The notes below the pieces were generated by a model, which made no database searches, was not told where the DNA came from, and worked only from the letters and a program-made list of their open reading frames with translations. DNA of 64,000 nt, from positions 288,001 to 352,000 of the IMG/VR virus record IMGVR_UViG_3300045988_180880. The stretch is one strand, 5' to 3'. Source of the DNA: a virus. Positions 4,489-39,962 of this stretch are shown here, in pieces (positions within the stretch are counted from its first letter, which is position 1; each line of letters starts with the position of its first letter). A program made the translations under genes and the position numbers.

Positions 4489-5273
4489 ATGGGAAAAGAG
4501 AAATATAACAAAGAAGAATTAATAAGATTATTAATTCATGAAGGAAAATCTTATAAAGAAGTTGCAGCTATGCGGGGTGATGGAAGCACTGGAGAAGCTA
4601 TACGTAAAGCAGCAAATAGATACGGGATAAAAGTATCAGATAGAAAGAAACTAAGAAAATGTGAATATTGTGGTAAAGAGCATGATGGTTCTTTTGGTTC
4701 TGGAAGATTTTGTTGTTCAGATTGTGCAAAGAAATATTCACTTAGTTTCAGCAAAGGTAAAAAACCAGAAGATAAATCTACTAAAGAAGAAAAAGTAGAA
4801 GAGTCTGTAAAGATAGCTCCTCCTAAGGAATGTACCACTGAATTGTCTAGATTTGATGGAAAATTAACTTCAGATTTATTAGGATATGTAGGTGAATGTG
4901 CGACAATGTTTCAATTAGCAAGAGTTGGAATTATGTCATCTAAACCTTGTGGAGTAGATAGATATGATGTAATTGCAGATATAGGAGGAATACTTTATAA
5001 AATTCAGGTTAAATCTACTGCTGGCTATATTGATAAAGATGGAGCATTATCGTACAATCTTCAAAATAAATCTGGATTATATAAAAAGGTGAAGTAGATT
5101 TCTTTGCCTTGTATAATTATGTACTTGATATTATACTATTAGTTCCCTTTAGTATACTTGAAGGTAAATATAAGGTGCGTATTCATTTTGGAAAAGAAAA
5201 AGATGAATCAGATTTATTCTTTTGGAAAGATTATATTTTATTTGATGTAGCGAAATCTTTATTATCCAGTTAA
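4489..5273 (+). CDS. PD-(D/E)xK (I-Ssp6803I-like) homing-endonuclease-like protein; needs a -1 shift at T_AAA_AAG (5082-5088)
   Basis: ORF-track 4489..5097 has a Cys-rich Zn motif (CEYCGK..CCSDC) and [18 protein letters not shown]. The -1 frame continues from 5088 for 61 more codons ([11 protein letters not shown]..), ending at 5271-5273. Sits among tRNA genes. Confidence 0.5.
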
Positions 5274-5286
5274 TTAATAATAAGTT

Positions 5287-5368
5287 TGTGTGATACTCAA
5301 GTGGTTAACGAGGATAGACTGTAAATCTATTAGCTTTGCTTTCGGGAGTTCGAATCTCTCTCACACAA
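5287..5368 (+). tRNA. tRNA-Tyr: tRNA-Tyr (anticodon GTA), class II
   Basis: Acceptor TGTGTGA/TCACACA, anticodon stem ATAGA/TCTAT with loop CTGTAAA, long variable arm, T arm GGGAG-TTCGAAT-CTCTC. Confidence 0.8.
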
Positions 5369-5388
5369 CATAAAATAAAATTATAAAT

Positions 5389-6372
5389 ATGAAAGTAAAA
5401 AGATTTAGTAAATTAGATACTCTACAAGATTCTATAAAAATTGTAAGTAAGAAAACAGGAGAATCTCTCACAATAAATAGATTTAAATCTTTTGTAGATA
5501 TTCTTGGAAAATTTATTAAGAGACTTAGAGAATGGAGTAATAAGAGACCGTCATTTGATATTTACTTAGGTTCTGAGAAAGTAGCAGAATTAAATCTTAT
5601 AGAAAAGTCCAAAGAAGAATTAAATATAATGTGGATTGAAACTTATGAAGATTATAGAGGTAAAGGATATTCTCAGGCTATTCTAACAGAGTTGATTAGA
5701 TTTGCTAAGTCTCAAGGTTATAAATATGTTACTCTTGAAGTGCCTGGTAGATCTCCTGATGCTAGACATATTTATGAGAAGCTTGGATTTAAGGATGATG
5801 GAGTCTTGACAACCCCAGAAGAAGATTTTTATTGGGGAGGTCTTACTAGAATGAAACTTAAATTGTTTGCAAATATTACTAATGTAACAAGTTTAACTCC
5901 ATTGAAAAATATAATAACAACTACTACTAGAAAAGCTACCGGACTATCTAATTCTAAAATAGCAACACAAGCAAAGAATGCAGCATTAGATTTACACTCT
6001 GTAACTAAAGATGCTCAAAATTCTTTTATATCTCCTAATGGTAATGGATATGTAACTAAAAGTTATTTTACTAAAAGACGTCCTAAAGGAAAGAAAGTTG
6101 AGTTTGTAGGAGATTTATTTGGGAATCCTAATCAATTACAGAAACCGAAAGTTATTAATAGCAGCAGTAGTAATAAAGGAGGAAATTCTTCAATTAGTAG
6201 TTTAGATGCTAAAAGAATGAATTTAAAACGGTATAATTCTCATAAAACAAGATCTTTGGAAGTAACACCTACTGCACCTGGACAAAATGAGTGGGTTAAA
6301 CGTGTAAAAACTAATGGACAAGCTAGGTGGGAAAATAATGGGTTATATATTCCTGGTTTTGAGAAATTATAA
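5389..6372 (+). CDS. Leader-tagged (MKVKRFS) GNAT-family acetyltransferase with basic C-terminal extension
   Basis: GNAT acetyl-CoA motif A-like sequence YEDYRGKGYSQAILTELIRFAKSQGYKYVTLEV..ARHIYEKLGF. Confidence 0.6.
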   Translation: MKVKRFSKLDTLQDSIKIVSKKTGESLTINRFKSFVDILGKFIKRLREWSNKRPSFDIYLGSEKVAELNLIEKSKEELNIMWIETYEDYRGKGYSQAILTELIRFAKSQGYKYVTLEVPGRSPDARHIYEKLGFKDDGVLTTPEEDFYWGGLTRMKLKLFANITNVTSLTPLKNIITTTTRKATGLSNSKIATQAKNAALDLHSVTKDAQNSFISPNGNGYVTKSYFTKRRPKGKKVEFVGDLFGNPNQLQKPKVINSSSSNKGGNSSISSLDAKRMNLKRYNSHKTRSLEVTPTAPGQNEWVKRVKTNGQARWENNGLYIPGFEKL

Positions 6373-6392
6373 AAAGAGAAAGGATCAAAATT

Positions 6393-6956
6393 ATGATTAA
6401 TTTCACAGACCATTTTGATCCCACTAAAAATATAGAAAAAGATTTAGCAAAAGTAGATCTTAGGGATCAATACACATCATTAACAGAAGATGAAAAGATA
6501 ATGGTATTTCTTCGTCTCAAAGGATTTACACACAGACCTCCAACGATAGAAAGATTATATTCTGATGATTATTATTTAGGTAGTCAGGAATTTTTTGATC
6601 ATGGAGATGTAATATTTCCTTTTTGGAAAGATGGATTGAAGAGAATTTTTCCAAATGAAGTTACAACAGCAAAACCATTACTCTGTTTGTCAGGAGCTAT
6701 TGGTATAGGTAAGTCTACGGTATCTAAATTAGCTATGACAAATACACTAGCTAGGTTAAGTTGTATGGCTAATCCGTGGAGAACATTTAAATTAGGTAAA
6801 AAACCACTTAGTTTTATCATCTTTCATAGAGATGAAGATGTAGCAAATGCTGAATTTCGAAGATGGATGCTAGATGATGTATTAAAGCAGAGTCCATTTT
6901 TTAGAAATTTACCACACAGACATAATATAAGAATATTAACTTCTGGTCCTAGGGGT
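6393..6956 (+). CDS. terL: Terminase large subunit, exon 1 (ATPase N-part)
   Basis: Walker A LSGAIGIGKST. It ends in phase 0 at AGGGGT| (GGGU pairs with guide GCCC at 6975-6978). Confidence 0.8.
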
Positions 6957-7167
6957 AATGTAGTATAAAAAGTTGCCCTCCATATTAAGAAATTATATGG
7001 TAATAAAGTAAGTAAATTCGGTGAAAGGATAATCCCAATACCGAGTCAAGGATCTTAGATAAATCTAAGTAATCTTTGATGTAACGAATAAAGACTTACT
7101 AACTTATATAATTATATAAGTTAAATTTATATTCTAAACTATAATAGAGTATTATAGAAATAGATTG
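6957..7167 (+). ncRNA. Group I intron, family B (B2)
   Basis: P3 GTAAGT/ACTTAC, P AAATTCGGTGAAA, Q AATACCGAG, P8 AACTTATATA/TATATAAGTT. 3' tail TTCTAAACTATAATAG..GATTG|, as in B1. Joins ..SGPRG|AGGLGTDLIF. Confidence 0.7.
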
Positions 7168-8490
7168 GCAGGTGGACTAGGAACTGACTTGATTTTTGCA
7201 ATCATGTCTGAGGTCAATTTTTGGCCTAACGAAGAAAAAGCCATGGAACGTGTAAATAGTACGTATATTCGTATTACATCTCGTTTTGATGTAAAAGAAA
7301 GTTTAACATTAGCCGGAAATCTAATAATTGATAGTTCTAGTAGAGGTGCAGGTGGTCCAACTGAAATATTTCTTGAGAATGCAGAACCTCAATTTACTTG
7401 GGATTGTAGACCTTCTCATTATGAAGTTAGAAAAAATCTGTACGAACGTTCAAGGGGAATAACTTTCTCAGTTTATACTGGAGATGGTAAATATCCTCCA
7501 AGAATATTAAATAAAAATGATAAAGAAGAGAACTATAAATTAGAAGATGATCAAGACCCTGATAGAGTGGAACATGTACCTATTCAATTATTTGGAGAAT
7601 TTAAATCTGATTTGATTAAAGCTCTTCAAGATAAATCTGGTATTAATACAGGATCATCAGATAGTTTTTTTGGAGGTACTATAGAACACTTATCTAAATG
7701 TTCAACAATAAAGAATAGAATTCCTGAAATTATTACAGTTGATTTTTATGATAAAGAAGATAGGATTATTAATCATGTAGAAAAAATGATTAATCTTATT
7801 CCAAAAGGTACTCCTATATGGCTAGGTCTTGACTTAGGTGTAGTAGATGATACAACTGGAATAGCAGCAGTTAGTTTTGATCATTGGGAAAATATAAATG
7901 GTACTTTAGTTCCTAAGGTTAAATGTCATTTTGTTTTAGGTGTATCTAGGTTAGAAGGACAAGAGACGAGTTTATTTCACATAGAGCAGTTTATAGAAGA
8001 TCTTAACAAGAAATTTAATATTATAGTTAGTGCTGACCAAGCTTTTTCTAAACAAATACTTCAATATTGTGAAAGAGAAGGAATTAGAAATAATGGGAGA
8101 ATTTCTACAGATAATACTCCTTGTGAACCGGCTCTTTATTTGAAGTATATAATAAACAATGAACTTCTTGAAATTCCTGAATATAAAAGATTACAAAGAG
8201 AGGCATATGATTTAAGATATGTTGGTCCAAAACGTAAAGTAGATCATCCTAAAAAAGCATCAATATCTCCATTATTTGATAATCCTGATGGTTCTAAGCC
8301 AGGAAGCAAGGATTTATGGGATGCTTTAGCTTCTAGTGTTTATTCTTTAAAATTATCTATTGATGAAGGAGAAGAGATGGGATATTCTTCAGGAATAGCT
8401 AAACAACTCGAATCTCTTACTAAAATAACAGCGGATCCAAGAGAAGAGTCACAAAAAGAACTTCAAAACATGTTGGAAAATATATTTTAA
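7168..8490 (+). CDS. terL: Terminase large subunit, exon 2 (Walker B region and nuclease domain)
   Basis: GTDLIFAIMSEV (Walker B-like). RNase-H-like nuclease motifs GLDLGVVDDTTGIAAV, SADQAF, KVDHP..SKDLWDA. The track's TTG 'start' at 7165 is intronic. Confidence 0.8.
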   Translation, partial: AGGLGTDLIFAIMSEVNFWPNEEKAMERVNSTYIRITSRFDVKESLTLAGNLIIDSSSRGAGGPTEIFLENAEPQFTWDCRPSHYEVRKNLYERSRGITFSVYTGDGKYPPRILNKNDKEENYKLEDDQDPDRVEHVPIQLFGEFKSDLIKALQDKSGINTGSSDSFFGGTIEHLSKCSTIKNRIPEIITVDFYDKEDRIINHVEKMINLIPKGTPIWLGLDLGVVDDTTGIAAVSFDHWENINGTLVPKVKCHFVLGVSRLEGQETSLFHIEQFIEDLNKKFNIIVSADQAFSKQILQYCEREGIRNNGRISTDNTPCEPALYLKYIINNELLEIPEYKRLQREAYDLRYVGPKRKVDHPKKASISPLFDNPDGSKPGSKDLWDALASSVYSLKLSIDEGEEMGYSSGIAKQLESLTKITADPREESQKELQNMLENIF

Positions 8491-8595
8491 GATTCTTTTT
8501 CCATAATATATAATCAATTCCTAGGATGGCCAGAGGAAAGTGGTCTATTGTTCGATCAAGTCCTAGGAACAGAAAAAAAAGAAAAGAGATATATT

Positions 8596-8805
8596 TCAAT
8601 CTCTTTCTTCCATACGTTTTACAAATTCCCATTCTTCTGGAGTAACATAATCCAGAACGCTTTTTGGAATTTCTACTTCTCTATCGTTTAACATTAATTT
8701 AACTTTAACAAATAATTTATTAGGAGTAATATCTACATCAGTTACTACTCCATAAAATCCTGTTTTACGAGATTTAACTTTATCTCCTACTTTTAAATTT
8801 TTCAT
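8596..8805 (-). CDS. Small KOW/SH3-like protein
   Basis: ORF track; VGDKVKSRKTGFYGVVTDV is KOW-like. The conserved motif lies 18 nt upstream of its ATG. Confidence 0.55.
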   Translation of the reverse strand: MKNLKVGDKVKSRKTGFYGVVTDVDITPNKLFVKVKLMLNDREVEIPKSVLDYVTPEEWEFVKRMEERD

Positions 8806-8823
8806 AATTTTCTATATTTATTA

Positions 8824-8842
8824 TTACACATATAAGGTTTTT
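8824..8842 (-). promoter_or_regulatory. Conserved motif TTACACATATAAGGTTTTT (minus-gene upstream element)
   Basis: One of 7 copies; lies 18 nt from the minus-strand ATG at 8805. Confidence 0.5.
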
Positions 8843-8849
8843 AGAGCTT

Positions 8850-9218
8850 ATGATAATACTACGAAAACAAAAATATAAAGAACTTCCCTGGACCAAAGAA
8901 AATATAGAAAAATATAAGTCACAGGAGAATATGTTAAAGCACGCAAGAAATACACCAGGAAAAACGGCTGGAAAATTATTAATAAACCCAGCCAAAGATG
9001 AGTTGGTGGGATATATAGCGTGCGAAGAAGATACTATTATTGCTCTAGAAGTTTCTCCGGGGTATAGAGGAAAAGGAATAGCAACTGATTTGATAAATTC
9101 TTCTGGGGCTAATAAACTTACAGTATCAAAGAAAAATATAAATGCGATAAATTTATATAAGAAACTTGGATTTGAAATTATATCAGAAACTCCAAAAATA
9201 TATTTTATGGAGAAATGA
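8850..9218 (+). CDS. Leader-like (MIILRKQKY) small GNAT acetyltransferase
   Basis: VSPGYRGKGIATDLI...INLYKKLGFEII matches the GNAT motif A/B pattern. Confidence 0.6.
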   Translation: MIILRKQKYKELPWTKENIEKYKSQENMLKHARNTPGKTAGKLLINPAKDELVGYIACEEDTIIALEVSPGYRGKGIATDLINSSGANKLTVSKKNINAINLYKKLGFEIISETPKIYFMEK

Positions 9219-9219
9219 T

Positions 9220-9291
9220 TGAACTATAGTATAATTGGCAATACACCAGATTTTGGTTCTGGGATTTCCTGTTCGAGTCAGGATAGTTCAA
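9220..9291 (+). tRNA. tRNA-Gln: tRNA-Gln (anticodon TTG)
   Basis: Acceptor TGAACTA/TAGTTCA, D stem GTAT/ATAC, anticodon stem CCAGA/TCTGG with loop TTTTGGT, T arm TCCTG-TTCGAGT-CAGGA. Confidence 0.8.
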
Positions 9292-9322
9292 CGAAAGAAA
9301 ATAATAATAACTAATAAAAACT

Positions 9323-9640
9323 ATGTTGAGAGTTAAAAGATTTAGTAAAGTTACTGATAAAGTTAAAGAAATAGGAAAATCTATTGAACATACAGTAACT
9401 CATCCTAAAGAAACTGGTAAGAAGGTGGTGGAGTATGTAAAGAAACACCCAGATGAAGCTATAATTCTTGGGACATCTGATATTGTTCCTGGAGTTGTTG
9501 CTGCCAAACTTGCAAAAGCTGGAAAAACAAAACAAGCAGCTATCGCAGGAACTATTGCAGCACTTCCTATTGGTGGTGCATATGTATCAGGGAAAATAGC
9601 TATTCGAAAATGGAATGAAAAAAGAAAGAAGAATAAATAG
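9323..9640 (+). CDS. Leader-tagged (MLRVKRFS) small protein with Gly/Ala-rich hydrophobic segment
   Basis: ORF track; sequence GVVAAKLAKAGKTKQAAIAGTIAALPIGGAYVSG. Confidence 0.55.
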   Translation: MLRVKRFSKVTDKVKEIGKSIEHTVTHPKETGKKVVEYVKKHPDEAIILGTSDIVPGVVAAKLAKAGKTKQAAIAGTIAALPIGGAYVSGKIAIRKWNEKRKKNK

Positions 9641-9648
9641 AATAGATT

Positions 9649-9721
9649 CGAGATGTAGTTCAGTAGATAGAACGCTTGGTTTGGGACCAAGAAGTCGCAC
9701 GTTTGAGCCGTGTCATCTCGA
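9649..9721 (+). tRNA. tRNA-Pro: tRNA-Pro (anticodon TGG)
   Basis: Acceptor CGAGATG/CATCTCG, D stem GTTC/GAAC, anticodon stem CTTGG/CCAAG with loop TTTGGGA, T arm GCACG-TTTGAGC-CGTGT. Confidence 0.8.
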
Positions 9722-9878
9722 CCTAGATAAATAGACGATGAGATATCGTGGAATTACTAACATGAATTATAAACCTTTAGGAAGAGTAAAAGTCGCGAGT
9801 TACTCTTCCACTACTAAGGATGACATGTTAATAATACAAGGATAGTTTGATATCTCGGGAAGCTATAAAATTTAATTC

Positions 9879-11327
9879 ATGATAGATACTAAATTATTAC
9901 CAGTACCTTTAGAGTATTCTTGTCCAATAGTAATGAGAGTAAAACTTCCCAGAAGAAATGATAGTGGGAGATTAAACTATTATACGTATGTTCCAGAATT
10001 AGGTACTTGGGTATTAGAAAAGATGAGAAATTCAGTTTTTAAGAAATTACAAAAATTAAATATAACTTTTAGGGACTGGGAAAATAGATGGTTACTTAAA
10101 TTACAACCATCTGATATGTATTCAGAACTTTGGGTAGATAAAATAATAGAAGTTTATTATAAAGATAAATTACCAAATACAAAAAGTTATATAAAAGATC
10201 AATTATTGTTAGATAATGATTATGTATTTACGGGTGTTATGGTTAAAGAGGATTTAATGGATATATTTATTAAATCTCGGGAGGGTAGTTTTATAGACAT
10301 AGTATATAATTATGATTTAGTACCTAAAATAATCGAAAAACTTACAGATGAAATATGTTTACAGTATTTAAATGATAATAATGAATATGAAAAATACTAT
10401 ACTACGTATTCAGATTTTATTTCAAGAGGGCTAAATTGTAGGTATTATGCTGCTAAACTTAGAAAAATAACGCTTAGTAATAAAGAATATCATTCGAGTA
10501 GATTAAAGACAACAGAAGCTTATATTACAGAATCAAAAGCTAAGTTTGGAGAAAATTCCTTTGAATATTTATCTGAATATACTGGAAGAATTGATAAAAT
10601 GACTTTTAAATGTAATAAGTGCGGAACAACTTTTTCGGTTTTAGCAAAAACACATTTAGAAAGTTCTCATGGTGGGTGTCCAGTTTGTAATACTAATTCT
10701 ATAAAAGAAGATAGAAAGTTTTCTAATCAAGACTTTCAAAATAGGTTGGATAATATTTATGGAATTGGAAAGTATAAGTTAATATCTAACTTTATCAATT
10801 GCAAGACTACTGTGGAAATTTTAGATCTTGAAACAAATACTATATTTAAACAAGATCCAGAGAATTTATTATATCATGGACTTACAGATCCTAGTACTGT
10901 TACTAAATCAAAGGGAGAACGATTAGTAGAGCTTTGGATTAATAAAAATTCAGATAAAATATTGGATTATAAGTGGAATACTAAAGTAAGTGGAATAGAG
11001 GGCAGGTGTAGAGATTATGTTATGATTGATTTTATTATTAACTATGGTGGGAAAACCATATGGATTGAATATAATGGAATTCAGCATTATACATATTTTT
11101 CACTATATCACAAATATGATAAAAATCTTTTTGATGACCAAAAAAGAAGAGATGAAAATGTAAGAATTTATTGCAAACAGAATAATATAATGTTGGTAGA
11201 AATTCCTTACACTATAAGTTCTTTTAAAAGAGTTTCTGAATTTTTAAATAAAGTAGTTTTTGAAAATATTGATCCAAGTACTTTAGTAGATTATAATCTT
11301 TTATATGAAACTACAAAAGGAAAATAA
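9879..11327 (+). CDS. Free-standing homing-endonuclease-like protein (Zn-ribbons plus Vsr/DUF559-like PD-(D/E)xK C-domain), paralog 1
   Basis: CNKCGTTF..GGCPVCN, and C-terminus DFIINYGGKTIWIEYNGIQHY..DDQKRRDENVRIYCKQNNIMLVEIPY. Paralogous to 26877 and 39120. Ends 20 nt before the 3-intron protease gene. Confidence 0.6.
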   Translation: MIDTKLLPVPLEYSCPIVMRVKLPRRNDSGRLNYYTYVPELGTWVLEKMRNSVFKKLQKLNITFRDWENRWLLKLQPSDMYSELWVDKIIEVYYKDKLPNTKSYIKDQLLLDNDYVFTGVMVKEDLMDIFIKSREGSFIDIVYNYDLVPKIIEKLTDEICLQYLNDNNEYEKYYTTYSDFISRGLNCRYYAAKLRKITLSNKEYHSSRLKTTEAYITESKAKFGENSFEYLSEYTGRIDKMTFKCNKCGTTFSVLAKTHLESSHGGCPVCNTNSIKEDRKFSNQDFQNRLDNIYGIGKYKLISNFINCKTTVEILDLETNTIFKQDPENLLYHGLTDPSTVTKSKGERLVELWINKNSDKILDYKWNTKVSGIEGRCRDYVMIDFIINYGGKTIWIEYNGIQHYTYFSLYHKYDKNLFDDQKRRDENVRIYCKQNNIMLVEIPYTISSFKRVSEFLNKVVFENIDPSTLVDYNLLYETTKGK

Positions 11328-11347
11328 TATAAAATTTAAATTGAAAT

Positions 11348-11569
11348 ATGAAATTTATTGCAAAATTGTTTTCGACAATGCTACCTGCATCTGACAGTAG
11401 TATGATACCTCGAGATGTTGCGGAATCTTTCTTTAGTAGCCAAGAGTTTAAACAAGCCTTAGAGGATAGAAAGCTCTTTGGAACATTAACACACTTAGCC
11501 AGAAATCTATCATCTGCCAAAAATGGTGGTCCTGCAGTATCTAAGACTATAGGGAAAGATGATCTCCTT
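11348..11569 (+). CDS. T4 gp21-like prohead protease, exon 1
   Basis: Begins MKFIAKLFS (leader-like). FGTLTHL aligns with T4 gp21 LGELNHP (catalytic His). Donor CTCCTT| (CCUU pairs with GAGG, directly before P2). Alternative donor at 11576. Confidence 0.55.
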
Positions 11570-11760
11570 TATTGCTAATAATGAGAGGCATAGATAAAAA
11601 GTTTATGAAAATGTTTTTAATTGCTGGAAAAAATAATAAATTAAATCAGCAAAAATAGATAATAAAATCTATTTCTCAACGACTAGAGTAAACACTAAGA
11701 ATACCGATTAATTCTTAGATAATATAGTCTATTATTGATTTTAAAATCAATTAGGTTAAG
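11570..11760 (+). ncRNA. Group I intron, family A (A3)
   Basis: P2 CATAGA/TTTATG, P AATTGCTGGAAA, Q AAATCAGCA, P6 ATAGAT/ATCTAT, R TTCTCAACGACTA, S AATATAGTCT. 3' end at G11760; alternative G11770. Confidence 0.7.
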
Positions 11761-11949: not shown

Positions 11950-12132
11950 TAATTAACTGAGACTTAAGAAATTCATAAGTTCTTAAGAAAATTTCATAAA
12001 ATGCTGGAAAGGTTAGAATCAAATCAGCATCATCTAGCAGATAGCGAGATGTTCAACGACTAAAGATGGAACCTAGATTTTTAGGATAATATAGTCTAAA
12101 TTTAATAGCAAGCAATATATTAAAAAAAATTG
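11950..12132 (+). ncRNA. Group I intron, family A (A4)
   Basis: P1 TCUU/GAGA, P2 CTTAAGAA/TTCTTAAG, P AAATGCTGGAAA, Q AATCAGCA, R GTTCAACGACTA, S AATATAGTCT. G12132 is the only in-phase G; tail ends AATTG|. Confidence 0.8.
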
Positions 12133-12756: not shown

Positions 12757-12930
12757 AAATAATATGCGTTTTTTATATGAATTGCTGGAAATATCTAAAT
12801 GAGATAAATCAGCATCAAATCATACTTAGATAAATCTAAAGAAGTGATTTGTTCAACGACTATGTATATAAACTGTCAAAATAGACAGAAGATATAGTCT
12901 AAATTATAAATAAATTTTATAAATACATTG
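12757..12930 (+). ncRNA. Group I intron, family A (A5)
   Basis: P AATTGCTGGAAA, Q AAATCAGCA, R GTTCAACGACTA, S GATATAGTCT (12891-12900). Tail ends CATTG|, P10 TAT/ATA. Phase 0 on both sides. Confidence 0.8.
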
Positions 12931-13137: not shown

Positions 13138-13143
13138 AAGATT

Positions 13144-14056: not shown

Positions 14057-16414
14057 ATGAAAAATACAAGATTTATGGAAGTCCTATTCTCAGCTGTAGA
14101 GGATAAGGATGAAGAATTAGCAAAGCAAGTAGCCAAAGATATTGAAGATGCTAAGGCTAATGGCTCTGTTGATACTGAAGAAGTAAAATATGAAAATATC
14201 GGTGACGGTAAAGTTTCAGTAACAGACAAAGAAAATGGCGAAGTTACTATCGTTGAAAAGGCTTCCGATGAGGACGATACTTATGATATGTATCCAGCTG
14301 AACAATCTGAACAAATCGAGGGATATCTTCATCCGGAAGGGGATGGAGTAACTCCGGGTAATCAGGTAGGTGCAGTTGACGAGGAAGTTGAAAGTCATAT
14401 GGATGGTAGTGCTGTTATTGCACCGAATCTTCCTGATGGTGGTTTAAATCCAGCAGCTGGTCATGAAGAAAGTGTAGAAATTACTGCACAAGAAGGTCCT
14501 GAAGCTGTAGAAGAATGCGAAGAAAAAGAATTCTCTGTAAGTACTGATAATAGCGTAGTTCTTAGAATTTTCTCAGATCAAGAATTTTGTGAAAGATTAT
14601 TCTCAGAAGTTATTGAATCAGAAGAAACAGCTAAAGTAGGTGATCTTAAAGTAGAGAAAACTGGTGAAAATGAAGTAGTTGTTACATCAGAATCTACAGG
14701 TGATCAAGCAAAGGTAGAGTTTAATGGTGAAGATATGGATGTTACTGAGCTAGAATCTAAGAATTTTAGTGAAGCAGAACAGTTTGATCCGTTGTTTGTA
14801 GTAGGAGTAGATCCAGTAAATCATGTTATTGTAGATGCTCCAGAGTATGACGAAGCATCAGCTCAAGAATTAGTTCAGAGTTTAACAGAAAAAGGAGTAG
14901 CAGGAGTTAGAATTTTTGATAACCCCGAAGACGCTCGTGAATATGCTATCGATCTCTTGAATGGTCTTGGTGTAGTTGAAGATGAACAACTTGGAGAACC
15001 TGAACAAGCAGAATTTTCAGATCATACTATTTACTTAACTGAATTCCAAGCTGATAATACAGACTTTATGTGTCGTTTCTTCTCTGAATCTGTAGATAGT
15101 ATTAGTGCAACTCAGGATGCTATTGAAGATGCTATTGAAAATGGTGATGAGATTGAAACAGATTCTGAAGTTATTACACCTATCGATTCTAAGACTGCAG
15201 TTATACAGGATAAAAATAAAGATGAATTTACTAAAGTTAGTTTAGAAGGTGAAGAAATGGAGCTTGAAAAGATAAGCGAAGATCAAGCAGAAGAGTTGAC
15301 AGATCATATCGTTGTTTCTGAAGAAGAGGAAGACGAAGATGAGGAAGAAGAAAAAGAATTCTCTGATGTTTGGTGTGACGAAGCAGAAACTAAATTTTTC
15401 TCAGAAAATGAAGAACTTACTCAGTATATGATTCGTTTGTTCTCTGAAGAGGCTGATTCTGCTGAAATTGAAAGCGCAATCCAAACTGGCGAACAAGTAG
15501 AAACAGATAAAGAAATTATTACGCCTATCGATTCTAAGACTGCAGTTATACAGGATAAAGAAAATGGCGAATTTACTAAAGCTGAGATGGATGAAGAAGT
15601 TCTTGATGTTAATCCTATCTCAGAAGCAGAAGCCGATAATCTAACAAACAGTATTGCAGTAGAAGATAAAGTTGAAAATCATGAAGAAAAAGAATTTTCT
15701 GAAGATATCTACTGTAATGAGGCAGAAACTAAATTCTTCTCTGAAGGTGAGGAATTTACTGAATATATGGTTCGTCTATTCTCTGAAGAAGATGGTCATT
15801 GTCCAGTAGAAAAAGCTATTGAAACTGGTAAGAAAGTAGAAACAGATAAAGAAATCATTACTCCAATTTCAGCTACAGAAGCAATTATAGAAGATAAGGA
15901 AAATGGTGAATTTACTAAGGCTACTATGAGTGAAGATGATATTGAATGTCATCCATTATCAGAAGAAGAAGCTGACAAACTTGAAGAACATTCTATTGAT
16001 AAAGAAGAAAAGAAATTCTCAGGAGATTATGAAGATCCTATTCTTAATAAATTCTTCTCAGATGTTGTAGGTGCAGTTCCTGTTCCTGCTGGAGAAGTAG
16101 ATCCTAATACTCCTGTAATTCCTTTAGCTGATCCTAATGCTGTAGCTCCTCAGGAAGTAGCAGTTCCGGCAGGTGTTGCTCCTGCACAAGGTGGTGCTAC
16201 TAGTGTTGAAGCTATTGAAGATAAAGCACTTCAGGCAGTTCAAAGTATCCAAGCAGTAGCAGAAGAAGCAGCTCAGCAAATTATGGAAGCAAAACAAGCT
16301 CCTGCACAGGCTCAAGAACAAGATCTTCAGGAAGCTCAGTTCTCAGAAAAGAAATTCAGTGATACAAATGATACTCTAGTATCATGGTTGACTGGAAATA
16401 GTTTTCGTAAGTAA
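14057..16414 (+). CDS. Highly acidic repeat protein, scaffold/internal-core polyprotein candidate
   Basis: 785 aa, D/E-rich, 17 FS dipeptides (EKEFS, TKFFS, xRLFS...). Three ~110-aa tandem repeats. Immediately upstream of the capsid gene. Confidence 0.5.
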   Translation: MKNTRFMEVLFSAVEDKDEELAKQVAKDIEDAKANGSVDTEEVKYENIGDGKVSVTDKENGEVTIVEKASDEDDTYDMYPAEQSEQIEGYLHPEGDGVTPGNQVGAVDEEVESHMDGSAVIAPNLPDGGLNPAAGHEESVEITAQEGPEAVEECEEKEFSVSTDNSVVLRIFSDQEFCERLFSEVIESEETAKVGDLKVEKTGENEVVVTSESTGDQAKVEFNGEDMDVTELESKNFSEAEQFDPLFVVGVDPVNHVIVDAPEYDEASAQELVQSLTEKGVAGVRIFDNPEDAREYAIDLLNGLGVVEDEQLGEPEQAEFSDHTIYLTEFQADNTDFMCRFFSESVDSISATQDAIEDAIENGDEIETDSEVITPIDSKTAVIQDKNKDEFTKVSLEGEEMELEKISEDQAEELTDHIVVSEEEEDEDEEEEKEFSDVWCDEAETKFFSENEELTQYMIRLFSEEADSAEIESAIQTGEQVETDKEIITPIDSKTAVIQDKENGEFTKAEMDEEVLDVNPISEAEADNLTNSIAVEDKVENHEEKEFSEDIYCNEAETKFFSEGEEFTEYMVRLFSEEDGHCPVEKAIETGKKVETDKEIITPISATEAIIEDKENGEFTKATMSEDDIECHPLSEEEADKLEEHSIDKEEKKFSGDYEDPILNKFFSDVVGAVPVPAGEVDPNTPVIPLADPNAVAPQEVAVPAGVAPAQGGATSVEAIEDKALQAVQSIQAVAEEAAQQIMEAKQAPAQAQEQDLQEAQFSEKKFSDTNDTLVSWLTGNSFRK
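15060..16030 (+). repeat. Three tandem ~330-nt coding repeats inside the acidic protein gene
   Basis: Repeated unit ..AETKFFSE.EE.T.YM.RLFSEE...VETDKEIITPIDSKTAVIQDKENGEFTKA...EEKEFS. The DNA is nearly identical over GATTCTAAGACTGCAGTTATACAGGATAAA. Confidence 0.75.
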
Positions 16415-16496: not shown

Positions 16497-17945
16497 ATGA
16501 ATACACAGTATTTGCAAATGATGCAGACTCCTTCAATGATGGAGGCTCTTATTAATAGCTCAGTATCAGCAGAAGATGCTAACCTTCGTTCTCGTGAATA
16601 TGCTAAGATGTTCTCTCGTAACGATGAAATGAAAGATTTGTTTGGTCTAGGTAATGCAGGTAATTTGCTGCAGAAGACTTTCTCTGGTTATGCAGAAACT
16701 CCGTTGCTGTCTACTCAGTATTTCAATGCTTCTGTAGCTTCTTATGTAAGCTCATTCGCAGGTTATATGTCTATCGAACGTGACTTTGATCAGCCTAATG
16801 GTTTGTTCTATTGGTTCGACGTTTTGGGTGTAACTGATATGCGTTCTGTTATTCCTAACTTAGGTCCGGATAACTATCAGGATATTCAAGCTATGGGTAA
16901 CTTTACTTTGAATATTACTCCGACTACTAATGCTGACTACTCTTCTTTGATTGGTCGTAAGATTATCCCTGGTACAGTACGTGTTAAGATTGCTACTGCA
17001 ACTGAAAAATTCGAATTGATCGATAATGGTCAGGGTGCTTTCATGGCTGTTGCTGGTAAGATTTCTAACGGTACTATCAACTATTTGAATGGTCGTGTAG
17101 AATTTACTTTGGCTACTGCTTTGGCTGGTGATGCTGCTACTGAATCAATCACTATTGTAGGTAAGGAAGATGTTACTGGTACTCCTTGTAATACTATTGG
17201 TGCTTCTAATGCACATGCTAATGATAAGAGATTTATCGCTAAGATGCAACAGCTTGGTTTGGCTACTGTACCTGATATGTTGGTAGCTGAATATAACATT
17301 GCTGCTTTAGGTGCTATGAAGAAAGCAACTGGTTCTGATATGGCTACTTTCTTGTTCACTAAGCTTCGTGAATTGTATACTAAGGTAATTAACTATAAAT
17401 TGGTTTCTACTTTGGAAGAAGGTTATAATGGTAACGTTATGGCTGACTTGGATTTGACTCAGGGTGCTATGACTGGTCAGTTCATGGATTATCGTTCTAG
17501 AGTTGACTTGTTCGATGCTTACTTGATTAATGTTGAAAGTGCATTGGCAACTAAAGCTGTTAAGGGTGTTGATGTTACTGCCTATGTAGCTGGTAATATG
17601 GCATCTAATCAATTCCAGAAGGGTGGAATGATTGGTAAATGGGAACGTAATACTAAGATGACTTATATCAATGACCTGTTGGGTTGGTATAATGGTATTC
17701 CTGTACTTCGTTCTACTGATATTGCTGAAGCTCCGGGTGAAGGTACTTTCTATGCAATTCACAAAACAAAAGATGGTCAGATGGCTCCGCTTGCACGTGG
17801 TATCTATATGCCTTTGACTGATACTCCGACTATTGGTAACTACAATAACCCAACTCAGATGGCTTCTGGTATCTACTATCAGGAAGGTACTAAGTATATG
17901 GCTCCTGAATTGGTACAGAAGGTTACTTTCAAATTCGGTATCTAA
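16497..17945 (+). CDS. Major capsid protein (candidate)
   Basis: 482 aa, directly after the protease/scaffold genes. Codon usage shifts sharply to CGT/GGT/GCT/CTG/ACT. A strong terminator follows. xFS sites at aa 39-40 and 62-63 resemble prohead-protease cleavage of a delta-domain. Confidence 0.6.
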   Translation: MNTQYLQMMQTPSMMEALINSSVSAEDANLRSREYAKMFSRNDEMKDLFGLGNAGNLLQKTFSGYAETPLLSTQYFNASVASYVSSFAGYMSIERDFDQPNGLFYWFDVLGVTDMRSVIPNLGPDNYQDIQAMGNFTLNITPTTNADYSSLIGRKIIPGTVRVKIATATEKFELIDNGQGAFMAVAGKISNGTINYLNGRVEFTLATALAGDAATESITIVGKEDVTGTPCNTIGASNAHANDKRFIAKMQQLGLATVPDMLVAEYNIAALGAMKKATGSDMATFLFTKLRELYTKVINYKLVSTLEEGYNGNVMADLDLTQGAMTGQFMDYRSRVDLFDAYLINVESALATKAVKGVDVTAYVAGNMASNQFQKGGMIGKWERNTKMTYINDLLGWYNGIPVLRSTDIAEAPGEGTFYAIHKTKDGQMAPLARGIYMPLTDTPTIGNYNNPTQMASGIYYQEGTKYMAPELVQKVTFKFGI

Positions 17946-25909: not shown

Positions 25910-26098
25910 ATTGAAATTGAATTTTTATGAACTGCTGGGATTTATATAAAAAAAATAAAAATCAGCAAAAAGGATTACTAATATAAATCCTTTCTCAACG
26001 ACTAAGTATAAAAGATAAATAAATTTTATTATTTTTCAAGATATAGTCTAGCGAAATTACCAAATAATTTTCTAAAACGAATTATACTAAGCAAAGTG
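25910..26098 (+). ncRNA. Group I intron, family A (A6)
   Basis: P3 TTTTAT/ATAAAA, P AACTGCTGGGA, Q AAATCAGCA, P6 AGGATT/AATCCT (same as A2), R TCTCAACGACTA, S GATATAGTCT. G26098 is the only phase-compatible terminal G. Boundaries +/-20 nt. Confidence 0.7.
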
Positions 26099-26331: not shown

Positions 26332-26510
26332 AAATAATTGCGCCTTGGATTTTTATATTACCAAGAAAAATAAGAGAATTGCTGGAAGATAATAAAATAA
26401 ATCAGCAAAGAAAGTTTACAAAAATTTTCTCTCAACGACTATGTACTTATTAAAATGATATAGTCTGATCTTAAATATTAATCTTATATTTAAGTTTAAC
26501 AATAATGCAG
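26332..26510 (+). ncRNA. Group I intron, family A (A7)
   Basis: P2 CTTGG/CCAAG, P AATTGCTGGAAG, Q AAATCAGCA, R TCTCAACGACTA, S GATATAGTCT, P9 CTTAAATA/TATTTAAG. Terminal G26510, P10 ATT/AAT. Joins IQR|NKMVVNV. Confidence 0.8.
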
Positions 26511-26569
26511 AATAAAATGGTGGTTAACGTTTTGGTTAGATACCAGAGAGCTTTGAAATATGTCATCGT
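26511..26569 (+). CDS. Tail sheath protein, exon 3 (59-nt mini-exon)
   Basis: NKMVVNVLVRYQRALKYVI, typical of a sheath C-terminal strand. Donor ATCGT| (UCGU pairs with GCGA), phase 2. Confidence 0.6.
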
Positions 26570-26737
26570 AAAGTATATGCGATTATTATACCAATTGCTG
26601 GAACTTAATAAATCCAAAGAATCAGCAAAAATAGATATAATTCTATTTCTCAACGACTAGATGTATAATTAAAATTTCATGAAGATTTTAAAAGATATAG
26701 TCTGAACATGAGTAGATAATACTTAGCAAACATATTG
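26570..26737 (+). ncRNA. Group I intron, family A (A8)
   Basis: P3 TATAC/GTATA, P AATTGCTGGAAC, Q GAATCAGCA, P6 ATAGAT/ATCTAT-like, R TCTCAACGACTA, S GATATAGTCT. Tail ends TATTG|, P10 TAT/ATA. Confidence 0.8.
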
Positions 26738-26826: not shown

Positions 26827-26858
26827 GATAGTATGCTGGAGAGATCTGGCATACTATC
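26827..26858 (+). terminator. Hairpin after the sheath gene
   Basis: 10-bp perfect stem GATAGTATGC/GCATACTATC followed by CTTT. Confidence 0.55.
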
Positions 26859-31395: not shown

Positions 31396-31397
31396 TT

Positions 31398-35090: not shown

Positions 35091-35099
35091 AATAAGATT

Positions 35100-37454: not shown

Positions 37455-37462
37455 TAAAAACT

Positions 37463-37602
37463 ATGGCAAGCGTAGCAAGTTTAGTCCGCGGAAGTGACGG
37501 ATACATGAAATTTATTGACTATCAAAGTACATATAAAGATAATAATAAAGAATTCCTTCGTGGTGACATGTGGGAACTTCAATTCATTAATGTACCTAAG
37601 AT
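37463..37602 (+). CDS. Tail tube protein (T4 gp19-like), exon 1
   Basis: MASVASLVRGSDGYMKF..FLRGDMWELQFINVPK. Donor CTAAGAT| forms a 7-bp P1 with GTCTTAG (U.G at the site), phase 2. The genomic frame stops 16 codons later. Confidence 0.65.
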
Positions 37603-37763
37603 AAATAATTGTCTTAGTAAAACTTTGTAAACTGCTGGAAGATCAAGTAAAGATAAATCAGCAAAAATAGATAAAAAATCTATTTCTCAACGACTATTAG
37701 CAAAGAAAAGAAATAGCCATAGATTTCTTTTATGATATAGTCTAAACATAGAACAAATGTTTG
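37603..37763 (+). ncRNA. Group I intron, family A (A9)
   Basis: P3 CTTTG/CAAAG, P AACTGCTGGAAG. The 5' half is nearly identical to A1. P6 ATAGAT/ATCTAT, R TTCTCAACGACTA, P8 AAGAAAT/ATTTCTT, S GATATAGTCT. Terminal G37763. Confidence 0.8.
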
Positions 37764-37965
37764 AGTTTATTTCCCTGGTACTGATATTTTCAATGCTAGA
37801 TTAAATGCCGTTCAGGTAGGTATTGATTATAGTGTATCAGGTTTTGAAAAGAGAATGCGTGGTAATTATACTATCATTCAGAAGACAGGTCAAAACACAG
37901 CTGGAACCCTGTCGTTGGCTTTTGTAGATAAGGAAGATCAGGCAATTACTTACTGGTTTGATAAT
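37764..37965 (+). CDS. Tail tube protein, exon 2
   Basis: AT|A junction codon, then VYFPGTDIFNARLNAVQVGIDYSVSGFEKRMRGNYTIIQK..AFVDKEDQAITYWFDN. Donor GATAAT| (pairs with GTTGTC). Confidence 0.6.
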
Positions 37966-38182
37966 TTAAAAGTTGTCCATTAAGAGATTAAAAGTTCCTT
38001 AATGAATCTTTGTGAACTGCTGGAAATTTTAATCGCTCAAGAATGATAAAAACTAAGAGCGGAAAAATAATCAGCAGAAATAGATATGATTCTATTTTTC
38101 AACGACTAAGTACAAAGAAAGAGGATAAGCCATAGTTCCTCTTATGATATAGTCTAGTATGATTTAAAACAAAAACCATAAG
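37966..38182 (+). ncRNA. Group I intron, family A (A10)
   Basis: P2 CATTAAG/CTTAATG, P3 CTTTG/CAAAG, P AACTGCTGGAAA, extended P5, Q TAATCAGCA, R TTTCAACGACTA, S GATATAGTCT. 3' end at G38182 (alternative G38183). Confidence 0.7.
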
Positions 38183-38368
38183 GACTATCGCCAGAAAATT
38201 GCAGATCGTGATACTAAATATTCTTTCAGAAAGGATGACTTAGTATGCGACCTTAGATTAATCTTAACTAACTCAAGCCGTATCAAAGTTCGTACTCTTA
38301 ATTTCTATAACTGTATTCTTCAGGATGCACCGATTGATGAAAATGGGCAGACTGAGGACGGAACCGAT
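38183..38368 (+). CDS. Tail tube protein, exon 3
   Basis: DYRQKIADRDTKYSFRKDDLVCDLRLILTNSSRIKVRTLNFYNCILQDAPIDENGQTEDGTD. Donor CCGAT| (CGAU pairs with GTCG), as in A1. Confidence 0.6.
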
Positions 38369-38559
38369 TAATAGCTTAGTCGCTTAAATAATAAAATTTA
38401 AGAAAATTATACTAAAATGCTGGAAAAATCTTGGTTATACCAAGTATAAATCAGCAAAAACTATTAAAAATAGTTTCTCAACGACTAAATGTATAACTTA
38501 AGAAGTATTAATTCTTAAGATGATATAGTCTATAATATATTAATGTATATTAACAAATG
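38369..38559 (+). ncRNA. Group I intron, family A (A11)
   Basis: P2 CTTAAAT/ATTTAAG, P3 TTATAC/GTATAA, P AAATGCTGGAAA, Q AAATCAGCA, R TTCTCAACGACTA, P8 CTTAAGAA/TTCTTAAG, S GATATAGTCT, P9 TAATATA/TATATTA. Terminal G38559. Confidence 0.8.
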
Positions 38560-38583
38560 CGAGCAGATATCCAAGTCAGCTTT
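38560..38583 (+). CDS. Tail tube protein, exon 4 (24-nt micro-exon)
   Basis: RADIQVSF resembles T4 gp19 ..EIQTFEV. Donor GCTTT| (CUUU pairs with GAAG, directly before P2). Confidence 0.5.
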
Positions 38584-38764
38584 TTCAAATGAAGAAGCAT
38601 AAAGTAATATAAACTTTATGAAAAATTCTATTAAAATGCTGGAATATCAAATAGATAATCAGCAAAAATTAGAAAAGATCTAATTTCTCAACGACTAAAT
38701 ATAGAACTAAGTTTGAAATATAATTTAGATGATATAGTCTATTCATTGATAAAAATAATTAATG
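38584..38764 (+). ncRNA. Group I intron, family A (A12)
   Basis: P2 CATAAAG/CTTTATG, P3 TTCTAT/ATAGAA, P AAATGCTGGAAT, Q TAATCAGCA, R TTCTCAACGACTA. P8 is identical to that of A2. S GATATAGTCT. Terminal G38764 gives a consistent frame. Confidence 0.75.
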
Positions 38765-38785
38765 ACTTTAAAGCAATTTGAACAT
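38765..38785 (+). CDS. Tail tube protein, exon 5 (21-nt micro-exon)
   Basis: TLKQFEH resembles T4 gp19 TLALDYWE. It is bounded by independently predicted sites: G38764 and donor GAACAT| (pairs with GTGTTT). Confidence 0.45.
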
Positions 38786-38953
38786 TTTGGAAAATTTCAT
38801 GGTGTTTTCTACAAGAATTGCTGGAAAATTTGTATCTTTGTATACAAATAATCAGCATCCTAGATATTAACATAAATCTAGGTTCAACGACTATGTATGT
38901 AGACTGAGGAAATTCCTTAGGTGATATAGTCTGTCATGAGGTGAAATTCATTG
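38786..38953 (+). ncRNA. Group I intron, family A (A13)
   Basis: P3 TCTACA/TGTAGA, P AATTGCTGGAAA, Q TAATCAGCA, R GTTCAACGACTA, P8 GAGGAAATTCCTTAG, S GATATAGTCT (38923-38932). The 3' end is uncertain (candidate Gs at 38933-38964). Confidence 0.7.
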
Positions 38954-38965
38954 ATTAACGTATGA
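38954..38965 (+). CDS. Tail tube protein, terminal exon (very short; position uncertain)
   Basis: With a CATTG| acceptor it reads INV*. The alternative acceptor G38960 gives YERTFDNI*. Confidence 0.25.
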   Translation: MNV

Positions 38966-39119
38966 AAGAACTTTTGATAATATTTAAAAAAATAACTTAA
39001 TAAACTAGAAGTATCTAATTTATTATTTCTTATGATTGCAAGGAAGGGTGGATCTGATCAATCTGCCCTTCTTCATAAGAAATATATTAGATATTTCCTT
39101 AAAAAAAATTGCAATCAAT

Positions 39120-39962
39120 ATGAAACTTAGAGCAAAAGATACTGAAAGTTTTATTCAAAAAAGTAAAGATAAATATGGTGAAGATGCTTTAGATTATTCT
39201 GAAGTAAACTATATTGATAAATTAACTCCTGTAAAACTAATATGTAAGAAATGTGGGAATATATTTTATCAATCACCAGCAGAACATTTAAGAGATAGAA
39301 AGAAAATATCTTGTCCTAAATGTGCAGTAATAGATTCCAGAGAAAGAAGGTCTATTAAACAGAAAGAAGTTTGGTTAAGGAAATGTAAAGATAAGTTTGG
39401 AGATAAATTTGATTACTCTAAAGTTAATTACATAAATAATAAATTAGATGTATGGATTTATTGTAATAGTTGTAAAAAATGGTTTAAACAATCTCCACAT
39501 CATCATATTAGAAATATTCATGGATGTCCTTTCTGTGCAATGAAAGAGAAATCTGGATATGAATTTATGGTTGAGAGTTATCTTGAATATTTAGTAAAAA
39601 ATGATAAAACGTTATCATATAATTCAGAATACAGTATTTTAAATAGGATAGCGGGAAGGAATTCTAACAAAATAATGATAGATTTTAAATTAAATATAAA
39701 TAACTTAGAATATTGGATAGAAGTTAATGGTCAGCAACATTACAAATTTATAAATTTCTTTCATAAAACAAAAGAAGATTTCCAAAAACAATTAAAAAGG
39801 GATGAAAATGTTAGAGAATACTGTAAAGAAAATAATATAATTCTCATAGAAATTCCATATACTTACAATACATATGAGAAAATATCTGAAGTTCTAAGAA
39901 GAATTTTAATTGGTGGTGAATCTCCAAATATAATAGTTCAGCCAAAAATAATACAACCATAA
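39120..39962 (+). CDS. Free-standing homing-endonuclease-like protein (Zn-ribbons plus Vsr/DUF559-like domain), paralog 3
   Basis: ATG at 39120 (MKLRAKDTESF..). CKKCGN..CPKCA, CNSCKK..CPFCA. C-terminus MIDFKLNINNLEYWIEVNGQQHY..LKRDENVREYCKENNIILIEIPY. Confidence 0.6.
   Translation: MKLRAKDTESFIQKSKDKYGEDALDYSEVNYIDKLTPVKLICKKCGNIFYQSPAEHLRDRKKISCPKCAVIDSRERRSIKQKEVWLRKCKDKFGDKFDYSKVNYINNKLDVWIYCNSCKKWFKQSPHHHIRNIHGCPFCAMKEKSGYEFMVESYLEYLVKNDKTLSYNSEYSILNRIAGRNSNKIMIDFKLNINNLEYWIEVNGQQHYKFINFFHKTKEDFQKQLKRDENVREYCKENNIILIEIPYTYNTYEKISEVLRRILIGGESPNIIVQPKIIQP

Follow-up and report, generated by a model that had tools for sequence, protein, structure and literature searches.

Putative zinc-finger nuclease genes adjoin clusters of small group I introns in a gut phage population

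Nuclease Genes and Interrupted Genes at the Locus

The window analyzed here is a 64,000-nt stretch of viral DNA (positions 288,001 to 352,000 of the IMG/VR record IMGVR_UViG_3300045988_180880) that carries three paralogous, free-standing genes for predicted nucleases, labelled HEG1, HEG2, and HEG3, each of which lies beside a putative virion gene interrupted by group I introns that contain no open reading frame (ORF). The association of the nuclease genes with these introns is non-random. The neighboring genes are broken into pieces lying in different frames, and the gaps between the pieces are ORF-less group I introns of 160–220 nt. Introns of family 1 interrupt the protease-like gene three times, the tail sheath gene three times, and the tail-tube-like gene five times, and these 11 belong to a total of at least 15 in the window (Table 1). 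Only 20 nt separate the HEG1 stop at 11327 from the ATG of the protease-like gene at 11348; the sheath stop at 26816 precedes the HEG2 ATG at 26877 by 60 nt, and the tube stop at 38987 precedes the HEG3 ATG at 39120 by 132 nt. A preliminary description of the stretch had placed each paralog beside one of the three most intron-rich genes, which holds, while two of its spacings (20, 61, and ~150 nt) needed a small revision.

Table 1. Coordinates of the nuclease genes, the interrupted genes, and their introns (window positions)
Feature	Position	Strand	Remarks
HEG1, free-standing nuclease gene, 482 aa	9879..11327	+	One Zn-ribbon module and a C-terminal PD-(D/E)xK domain; PHROG 559, 5.5e-28
HEG2, free-standing nuclease gene, 432 aa	26877..28175	+	Four Zn modules (CapR/DUF723/DUF4379-like) and a PD-(D/E)xK domain; PHROG 559, 1.6e-41
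HEG3, free-standing nuclease gene, 280 aa from ATG	39120..39962	+	Two Zn modules and a PD-(D/E)xK domain; mobile cassette ~39005-39960
Free-standing PDDEXK_5 (I-Ssp6803I-type) nuclease gene	4489..5097	+	Unrelated to HEG1-3; PF11645, 1.5e-7
Protease-like gene, spliced ~400 aa	11348..13137	+	Introns 11571-11760, 11950-12132, 12758-12930
Tail sheath gene, spliced ~794 aa	23902..26816	+	Introns 25891-26079, 26332-26507, 26570-26737
Tail-tube-like gene, spliced ~195 aa, five introns	37463..38987	+	Exact introns 37604-37763, 37963-38182
Tail-tube-like gene, introns given by their cores	38407-38551, 38626-38760, 38808-38952	+	Covariance model
Family-1 group I intron core in gene 93-539/742-1074	574..712	+	Covariance model
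Family-1 group I intron core after ORF 3097-3633	3651..3792	+	Covariance model; absent in L100, L103, L107
Second-family mini-intron	1046..1220	+	nhmmer E 1e-36; model built from polymorphic inserts
Second-family mini-intron joining ORFs 6393-6968 and 7165-8490	6973..7159	+	Second-family model
Inverted repeat GATAGTATGC...GCATACTATC	26827..26858	+	Between sheath stop and HEG2 start; read from sequence

The Interrupted Genes and Their Introns

Close relatives of the window are absent from 50,697 deposited phage genomes, as searched by megablast and by tblastn of the structural genes; IMG/VR holds many relatives that are 95–100% identical to it, on contigs up to 378 kb. The population comparison draws on ~130 related loci from such relatives (labelled L0xx–L1xx). 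Introns were detected with purpose-built models, namely a covariance model for family 1 and an nhmmer model for a second family.

The covariance model recovers exactly 13 family-1 introns in the window, all on the + strand. The group I core elements AATTGCTGGAA, AATCAGCA, TCAACGACTA, and GATATAGTCT (P/Q/R/S) are invariant among them, as are the P4 and P7 pairs, and P3 is a 6–8 bp helix that is built from differing sequences in 12 of the 13 introns. The terminal base is G in all eight introns checked, six of which are preceded by T. Individual introns are missing from relatives that are 99% identical, in which the exons join exactly and in frame, and distant relatives contain intact homologs, i.e., a 195-aa tube-like protein (L062), a 405-aa protease-like protein (L094), and sheath proteins of 771–796 aa; the intact proteins of L062 and L094 align across the exon junctions of the window. 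On these signatures, the interruptions are judged to be real group I introns. The idea that an alternative genetic code accounts for the broken ORFs was rejected, since the exons switch frame and the interruptions are precise indels of 160–220 nt with group I cores. The Rfam model RF00028 gave no match in whole-window scans, either at its gathering score or at E <= 1; on a 951-nt stretch, its scores were 21.5, 19.9, and 12.8 bits, below the cut-off of 50.

The names of the interrupted genes are partly verified. Exon pieces returned nothing in Pfam, PHROGs, or PDB sequence searches, and the identities come from homologs. The sheath is named from a Foldseek search with the model of a homolog, which retrieved the sheaths of T4, KP1, pyocin, and contractile injection systems, the model itself being of low confidence (predicted local distance difference test, pLDDT, 55). 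The intact tube homolog matches a PHROG tail tube at E 0.007, and the intact protease homolog matches a PHROG head-maturation protease at E 0.049; the latter name is also suggested by the position of the gene ahead of scaffold-like and capsid-like genes. The gene that is restored by joining ORFs 6393–6968 and 7165–8490 may be terminase-like, a label that is drawn from a weak PHROG match.

A second family of ORF-less introns, ~170–210 nt long with the core GTAAGTAAATTCGGTGAAAG ... AATACCGA ... GTAACGAATAAAGACTTAC, is missed by both Rfam and the family-1 model; one such intron is polymorphic in the tube gene of relatives (L036, 8280–8488). Intron density can be extreme. The sheath gene holds up to six introns in ~500 nt of coding sequence, and in L001 two group I introns flank a 14-nt micro-exon (AAATATGTCATCGT; ~8643–8840, corresponding to window 26545–26570), which also occurs in L005, L029, and L030. 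In L037, seven introns interrupt the 588-nt tube gene, so that 1995 nt of DNA are spent on 195 codons.

Sequence and Predicted Fold of the Nuclease Paralogs

The paralogy of the three ORFs, which the preliminary description had stated together with their common C-terminal motif, is confirmed by phmmer (HEG1 versus HEG3, E 3e-39; HEG2 versus HEG3, E 2e-15), and the shared motif reads IEY[ND]GxQHY ... RD ... YC..NNI.L..I.Y. A six-frame translation of the window contains no further paralog. The zinc modules, which number from one to four per protein (Table 1), follow the pattern C..[CH]x12-30C..C and are recognized by Pfam as CapR (3e-13, in HEG2), DUF4379 (1.7e-7), DUF723, and Zn_ribbon_8. The guanine-plus-cytosine (GC) content of the three genes is 24–28%, below that of their surroundings. 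As a separate observation, the N-terminal 230 aa of HEG1 (9879–10570) have no Pfam match and no counterpart in HEG2 or HEG3.

The proteins match PHROGs 559, 9084, and 7140 at 1e-9 to 1e-41, the labels of which are HNH, homing, or intron-encoded endonuclease. DUF559 (PF04480) is reached by HEG2 only and remains below the cut-off (18.3 versus 20.6 bits, E 0.002). The family has 96 homologs in a large protein database, nearly all of them metagenomic; one of the homologs carries PF04480, and one has been named a very-short-patch-repair endonuclease by the Joint Genome Institute (JGI). In an alignment of 45 sequences, E148, D188, E201, and G204 are invariant (numbering of the 280-aa HEG3), and Q206, H207, and D228 are nearly so. 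HEG1 retains the family-invariant catalytic E, D, and E. The lysine position of the catalytic motif is occupied by N or D in the family, and the 'E-x-D-G' motif of DUF559 has the same variant at this position.

The AlphaFold2 model of HEG3 (mean pLDDT 94) consists of two zinc modules followed by an alpha/beta domain, in which residues 137–263 are arranged as a helix, three strands, a helix, and a strand, i.e., a restriction-endonuclease-like core. Foldseek matches of this model in the PDB are weak (E >= 7e-3); however, PD-(D/E)xK nucleases are both top-ranked and most frequent among them, including AF1548, Bax1, the R2 retrotransposon endonuclease, RecU, Hjc, Can2, McrC, and BstEII. The best sequence-profile match of the family in the PDB, which is not significant (E 0.77), is T7 endonuclease I, in an alignment that pairs S-GE, DF, and E-x-G with the catalytic residues of that enzyme, E148, D188, and E201 falling opposite its E20, D55, and E65. 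Strong matches (1e-18 to 1e-10) were obtained in BFVD, a collection of predicted viral structures, under the names 'Group I intron-associated VSR homing endonuclease', 'Group I intron protein', and 'Homing endonuclease'.

Neither Vsr nor I-Bth0305I appears in the PDB profile search (E <= 10) or among the top 50 Foldseek matches. Membership in the EDxHD family, of the I-Bth0305I type, is not supported, as no similarity in the catalytic domain was recovered and the N-terminal modules are zinc fingers instead of NUMOD or helix-turn-helix modules. Since the best-ranked fold matches are PD-(D/E)xK nucleases and neither Vsr nor I-Bth0305I was recovered, the C-terminal domain of HEG1–3 is assigned, on motif and model, to the PD-(D/E)xK nucleases of DUF559 type and not to the EDxHD family. 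The earlier characterization of the proteins as zinc ribbons joined to a Vsr/DUF559-like nuclease domain is thus borne out for the zinc modules and the PD-(D/E)xK fold; profile searches returned the former as well as the PHROG endonucleases, whereas DUF559 stayed under its gathering score and the likeness to Vsr extends only to the level of the fold. To our knowledge, no member of this zinc-finger plus DUF559-like family has been tested biochemically.

The homolog of Bacillus phage Mawwa lies inside a terL intron, between two terL fragments and directly after an Rfam group I match (49.6 bits), and that of Staphylococcus phage VL10 is also located between terL fragments; because of these positions, the family is taken to include intron-encoded members. 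These Herelleviridae genes, annotated as 'Group I intron-associated VSR homing endonuclease' or 'group I intron protein', belong to the same family by tblastn and by BFVD fold (E 1e-10 to 1e-13) and are linked to terL genes carrying several introns. They differ in that their ORF is placed inside the intron between terL exons, whereas at the present locus the nuclease gene is separate from the interrupted one and the introns contain no ORF.

Clustering of Introns at the Nuclease Slots

Within the window, an intron core lies no farther than 300 nt from 6 of the 53 gene junctions, and the paralogs occupy such junctions in three cases out of three (p ~0.0015, permutation). Across 115 loci, 90 of the 96 occurrences of the HEG family fall within 600 nt of an intron, a distance at which ~21% of the sequence would qualify by chance; these 96 occurrences are redundant copies of about five slots. 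The strongest evidence of association is the crowding of introns in the sheath gene. Seven intron sites are known for this gene across the population, with one to six occupied per genome, and all seven fall within the last 557 of its 2382 coding nt, i.e., the 23% nearest HEG2 (uniform chance 0.234^7, ~4e-5). In some genomes, the gene beyond the HEG2 slot is also interrupted by introns.

Two further slots of the HEG family were seen only in relatives, both with adjoining introns. The first is occupied by a paralog ~550 nt to the left of the first base of the window, near the intron core at 574–712. The second is located upstream of ORF 6393; in L099 and L104 (10450–11868), a block with a HEG paralog replaces the 327-aa ORF 5389–6372, and the next gene then has an intron at a site corresponding to window position 6707. 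L095, L098, and L109 possess this intron too but lack that paralog. In distant lineages, in which the sheath protein is 52–79% identical, the HEG family fills the slot that follows the sheath gene in six of nine, and in four such lineages all five introns found are within ~450 nt of this slot. A HEG-family gene also stands beside an intron-bearing gene in L125, L128, and L131. Two distant lineages lack both the nuclease gene and introns, and the six distant-relative loci without a nuclease gene have no introns.

This distribution bears on whether any functional link exists at all, since introns and nuclease genes could settle independently beside the same conserved, highly expressed virion genes, where insertions are tolerated or hard to lose. 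Homing-endonuclease genes generally cluster near essential phage genes (PMC10448857), the presence of the two elements is independent among close relatives, and lineages exist that are nuclease-positive and intron-less. Furthermore, three free-standing homologs in unrelated large phages have no intron detected within 4 kb, although the detection method is insensitive. Independent settlement nevertheless leaves unexplained why the seven sheath sites are confined to one end while the other 1.8 kb of the same conserved gene is empty, why introns occur in the gene across HEG2 from the sheath gene, and why the putative capsid gene (16497–17945), the tape measure gene, and the baseplate genes are without both elements. 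We consider this explanation improbable.

Mobility and Allele Turnover of the Nuclease Genes

HEG1–3 behave as mobile cassettes that turn over rapidly. The HEG3 cassette (39005–39960) is precisely absent from seven loci (L034, L037, L040, L052, L055, L058, and L059); in L056, HEG3 consists of two adjacent ORF fragments, probably owing to a frameshift, and in L051 it is truncated. HEG1 carries an internal deletion (9999–11178) in four loci; roughly half of the loci have a 1707-nt allele in its place, together with ~1 kb of unalignable protease sequence. Five alleles of 360–437 aa occupy the sheath slot, the C-terminal domains of which are 48–81% identical, compared with 24–34% for the zinc-finger arrays. 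The core of HEG2 can be aligned in only ~30% of loci and is surrounded by a local peak of divergence, at which identity to the window drops from 97–99% in the flanks to 91–93% within ~1 kb on either side of the gene. Presence or absence at a fixed site, accompanied by decayed copies, marks these as optional genes in the manner of homing-endonuclease genes.

Such turnover is relevant to the idea that the proteins have been domesticated, either as CapR-like regulators or as nucleases that exclude competing phages, with their position beside introns being a relic. In a phage satellite, zinc modules of the CapR type have been recruited to act as a repressor (PMC10448857, citing the CapR work). In addition, the slot that follows the sheath gene is filled even where sheath proteins are only 52–68% identical, which suggests long-term retention. 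However, the catalytic E, D, and E are invariant, and presence/absence, internal deletion, frameshift, and allele replacement together form the pattern of a selfish element and not of a fixed host function. Domestication appears highly improbable.

The inverted repeat between the sheath stop and the HEG2 start is kept before other HEG alleles, including a different allele in L007; a further inverted repeat lies at ~39037–39073, between the tube stop and the HEG3 start. These repeats may be terminators or limiters of nuclease gene expression.

Possible Mechanisms of Intron Accumulation

On balance, we lean toward regarding HEG1–3 as free-standing homing-endonuclease genes, the predicted activity of which would turn their surroundings into a gene-conversion hot spot where ORF-less introns accumulate by trans-homing or hitch-hiking. 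Each gene would occupy a fixed intergenic slot beside an essential virion gene. During mixed infection, the enzyme would cut a related genome in or near the neighboring gene, and donor-templated repair would copy the nuclease gene along with a few hundred bp of flanking DNA, such that ~1 kb around each slot would become the hot spot. Mini group I introns lying within this tract would be copied along and would accumulate, and some of them may also interrupt the target of the enzyme itself and thereby protect the genome that carries them. Of this account, the analysis establishes the gene family, the mobility and allele turnover of HEG1–3, the peak of divergence, and the intron clusters at the slots, whereas the cutting and copying steps are inferred.

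Several observations weigh against this account. Nuclease and intron presence vary independently among close relatives. The seven tube loci without the HEG3 cassette keep four to seven introns, and three of them (L040, L052, and L055) match the intron patterns of L041, L045, and L057, which possess HEG3. Introns persist beside the deleted HEG1, a nuclease gene stands beside intact, intron-less genes in L130, L132, and L133, and L121 has an intron beside an empty slot. Among ten lineages compared at the sheath slot, introns are present in four of seven with the nuclease gene versus one of three without it, a difference that is not significant in this small sample. Moreover, the related loci are phylogenetically redundant, and large counts exceed the number of independent events. 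Intron cores at different sites share 51–76% identity, the closest relative of a core usually lying in a different gene, and thus no trace of recent local spread is seen; a recent duplication of introns within a gene was rejected on the same grounds, and by these comparisons the introns are judged old relative to the population. The proposal of the preliminary description, in which collaborative homing could explain the spread of endonuclease-free introns, is thus upheld insofar as free-standing genes lie non-randomly beside ORF-less introns, which cluster at the slots in relatives, at the two extra slots, and in distant lineages; it is not upheld among close relatives, in which the two elements vary independently.

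Collaborative homing in the strict sense, as for F-CphI and psbA, would require the nuclease to cut at the intron insertion site, with the intron splitting that site and protecting its carrier and with both elements invading as a unit. The arrangement at the locus fits, in that a free-standing nuclease gene is situated 20–132 nt from a gene full of ORF-less introns. Nearly all genomes with the nuclease gene possess sheath introns e and g, and wherever the allele-C cassette occupies the sheath slot, in two backgrounds (L003/L010 and L018), an intron interrupts the downstream gene at its 5' end, near 28226. The mechanism has been demonstrated for F-CphI, as summarized in PMC6083498, and trans-homing for mobE and I-TevIII (PMC2790892). 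With up to six or seven introns per nuclease gene, however, most of the introns cannot be its target, and no motif is shared by the exon flanks of eight insertion sites. A one-to-one link between HEG alleles and intron patterns was not found, the sole exception being the allele-C cassette and its downstream intron. The HEG3 cassette occurs with and without the same intron sets and must therefore have entered or left genomes already carrying introns, and there are lineages with a nuclease gene and zero introns. Strict collaborative homing is unlikely to be the general explanation, though it may apply to individual introns.

A further, still more doubtful possibility is that the ORF-less introns are immunity elements in an arms race against diversifying homing endonucleases. 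Zinc-finger arrays would be swapped at the slots, each new specificity cutting a new site within the adjoining few hundred bp, and every mini-intron would owe its fixation to the splitting of one of these sites. Allele turnover would then drive the colonization of new sites, and the outcome could be up to seven introns, with exons down to 14 nt, in 560 nt of coding sequence.

Comparison with Known Systems

Intron mobilization by a free-standing endonuclease has been described for F-CphI and the psbA intron of cyanophage S-PM2 (Zeng, Bonocora and Shub 2009, as summarized in PMC6083498). Analogous to HEG1–3, a free-standing homing-endonuclease gene adjoins a gene with an ORF-less group I intron, and mutual benefit has been proposed. 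As far as that summary goes, F-CphI has an Endo VII (HNH-type) motif in place of PD-(D/E)xK and zinc-finger arrays, it is paired with one intron compared with three to seven introns per gene in the present case, and its cleavage of the insertion site has been demonstrated, whereas cleavage by HEG1–3 is a prediction. The T4 gene mobE, together with the defunct I-TevIII intron in nrdB, provides a second precedent, in which a free-standing endonuclease mobilizes flanking DNA including an immobile neighboring intron (PMC2790892). The hitch-hiking model that we favor corresponds to this mobE type of trans-homing. The differences are that mobE encodes an HNH enzyme, that a single intron with a degenerate endonuclease ORF is involved, and that the effect was seen in genetic crosses (PMC2790892).

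Modular zinc fingers are a feature of the T5orf172 endonucleases in the 'HEG islands' of ICP1 and other phages (PMC10448857), where CapR, DUF723, and DUF4379 zinc fingers are likewise repeated and shuffled. In those islands, the limits of exchanged segments next to essential genes are marked by nuclease genes, and a free-standing endonuclease gene is located next to an intron-containing terL. However, the T5orf172 nuclease is GIY-YIG-like and not PD-(D/E)xK, and dense intron arrays are not described there (PMC10448857). I-Bth0305I, the representative of the EDxHD family, resembles HEG1–3 in having an N-terminal DNA-binding region followed by a C-terminal restriction-endonuclease-like (Vsr-related) nuclease and in being phage-borne and intron-associated; in contrast, it has NUMOD/helix-turn-helix modules and is intron-encoded (PMC3239194).

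The window is very probably derived from a member of the Jug (jumbo gut) phages, an assignment made because size, GC content, habitat, and features match: its relatives reach 378 kb, the GC content is 30%, and the origin is gut metagenomes. As given in the main text of PMC12880540 (Sci Adv 2026), Jug phages have genomes of 360–402 kb with 30% GC, predicted hosts in Bacteroides or Phocaeicola, and a mean of 18.5 group I introns per genome, each of ~206 nt, with splicing backed by metatranscriptome reads for 37 of 76 introns. The same source reports a fragmented prohead protease gene and many stand-alone endonuclease genes, PDDEXK_5 included; the endonucleases it names are HNH, PDDEXK_5, GIY-YIG, and LAGLIDADG. 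Its main text contains neither the zinc-finger plus DUF559-like family nor the clustering of introns around such genes nor collaborative homing.

Collaborative and trans homing, Jug phages with their mini-introns and stand-alone endonucleases, and endonucleases with zinc-finger arrays are already known. Free-standing genes of the zinc-finger plus DUF559-like type in Jug phages, intron clustering at their slots, and turnover at the population level are not described in the main texts of the papers cited here. The spread and persistence of endonuclease-free group I introns in phages have so far been understood from a few single-intron cases such as F-CphI/psbA and mobE/I-TevIII. An abundant phage population of the human gut offers natural replicates, with several slots, nuclease genes that are present, absent, or decayed, five swapped alleles, zero to seven introns, and natural intron-less alleles, which makes trans-homing and hitch-hiking directly testable. 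The findings also point to a widespread, biochemically uncharacterized endonuclease family with modular and apparently reprogrammable DNA recognition. Finally, annotation based on Rfam and ORFs misses these introns and, as a consequence, the true virion genes of such phages.

Fourth Nuclease Gene and Other Features of the Window

A fourth nuclease gene, of the PDDEXK_5 type, scores 32.0 bits against PF11645 (cut-off 26.1), weakly matches I-Ssp6803I (PDB 2OST, E 0.036), and has an N-terminal FCS-type zinc finger. Its preliminary description as an I-Ssp6803I-like PD-(D/E)xK gene of the tRNA cluster is correct, as it sits between tRNA-Ser and tRNA-Tyr; the statement that it lies between two intron-containing genes is only loosely right, the introns in question being those at 3651–3792 and 6973–7159. 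A link between this gene and the nearer intron (3651–3792) was rejected, since relatives hold both other combinations, namely the gene alone in L100, L103, and L107 and the intron alone in L096, L105, and L109. Directly upstream of the PDDEXK_5 gene, L100, L103, and L107 (~8326–9914) carry another PDDEXK_5-like ORF, which is very divergent and is truncated or frameshifted in L095, L102, L106, and L108. No other recognizable nuclease family is present among 46 further ORFs of the window.

The window has a GC content of ~30%, and nearly all of its long ORFs are on the + strand. The GC skew is above zero in every 2-kb bin (2001–64000) and the cumulative skew climbs steadily over all 64 kb, which agrees with the near-exclusive placement of long ORFs on that strand. 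Virion genes in the window include those for a phage tail lysozyme, a T4-type baseplate protein, and a tape measure protein, and there are six tRNA genes. Positions 14057–16414, located after the protease-like gene and ahead of the putative major capsid gene, encode a very acidic protein of 785 aa with long internal repeats, in which KEFS/FFSE and ITPIDSKTAVIQDK blocks recur; it may be a scaffold or decoration protein.

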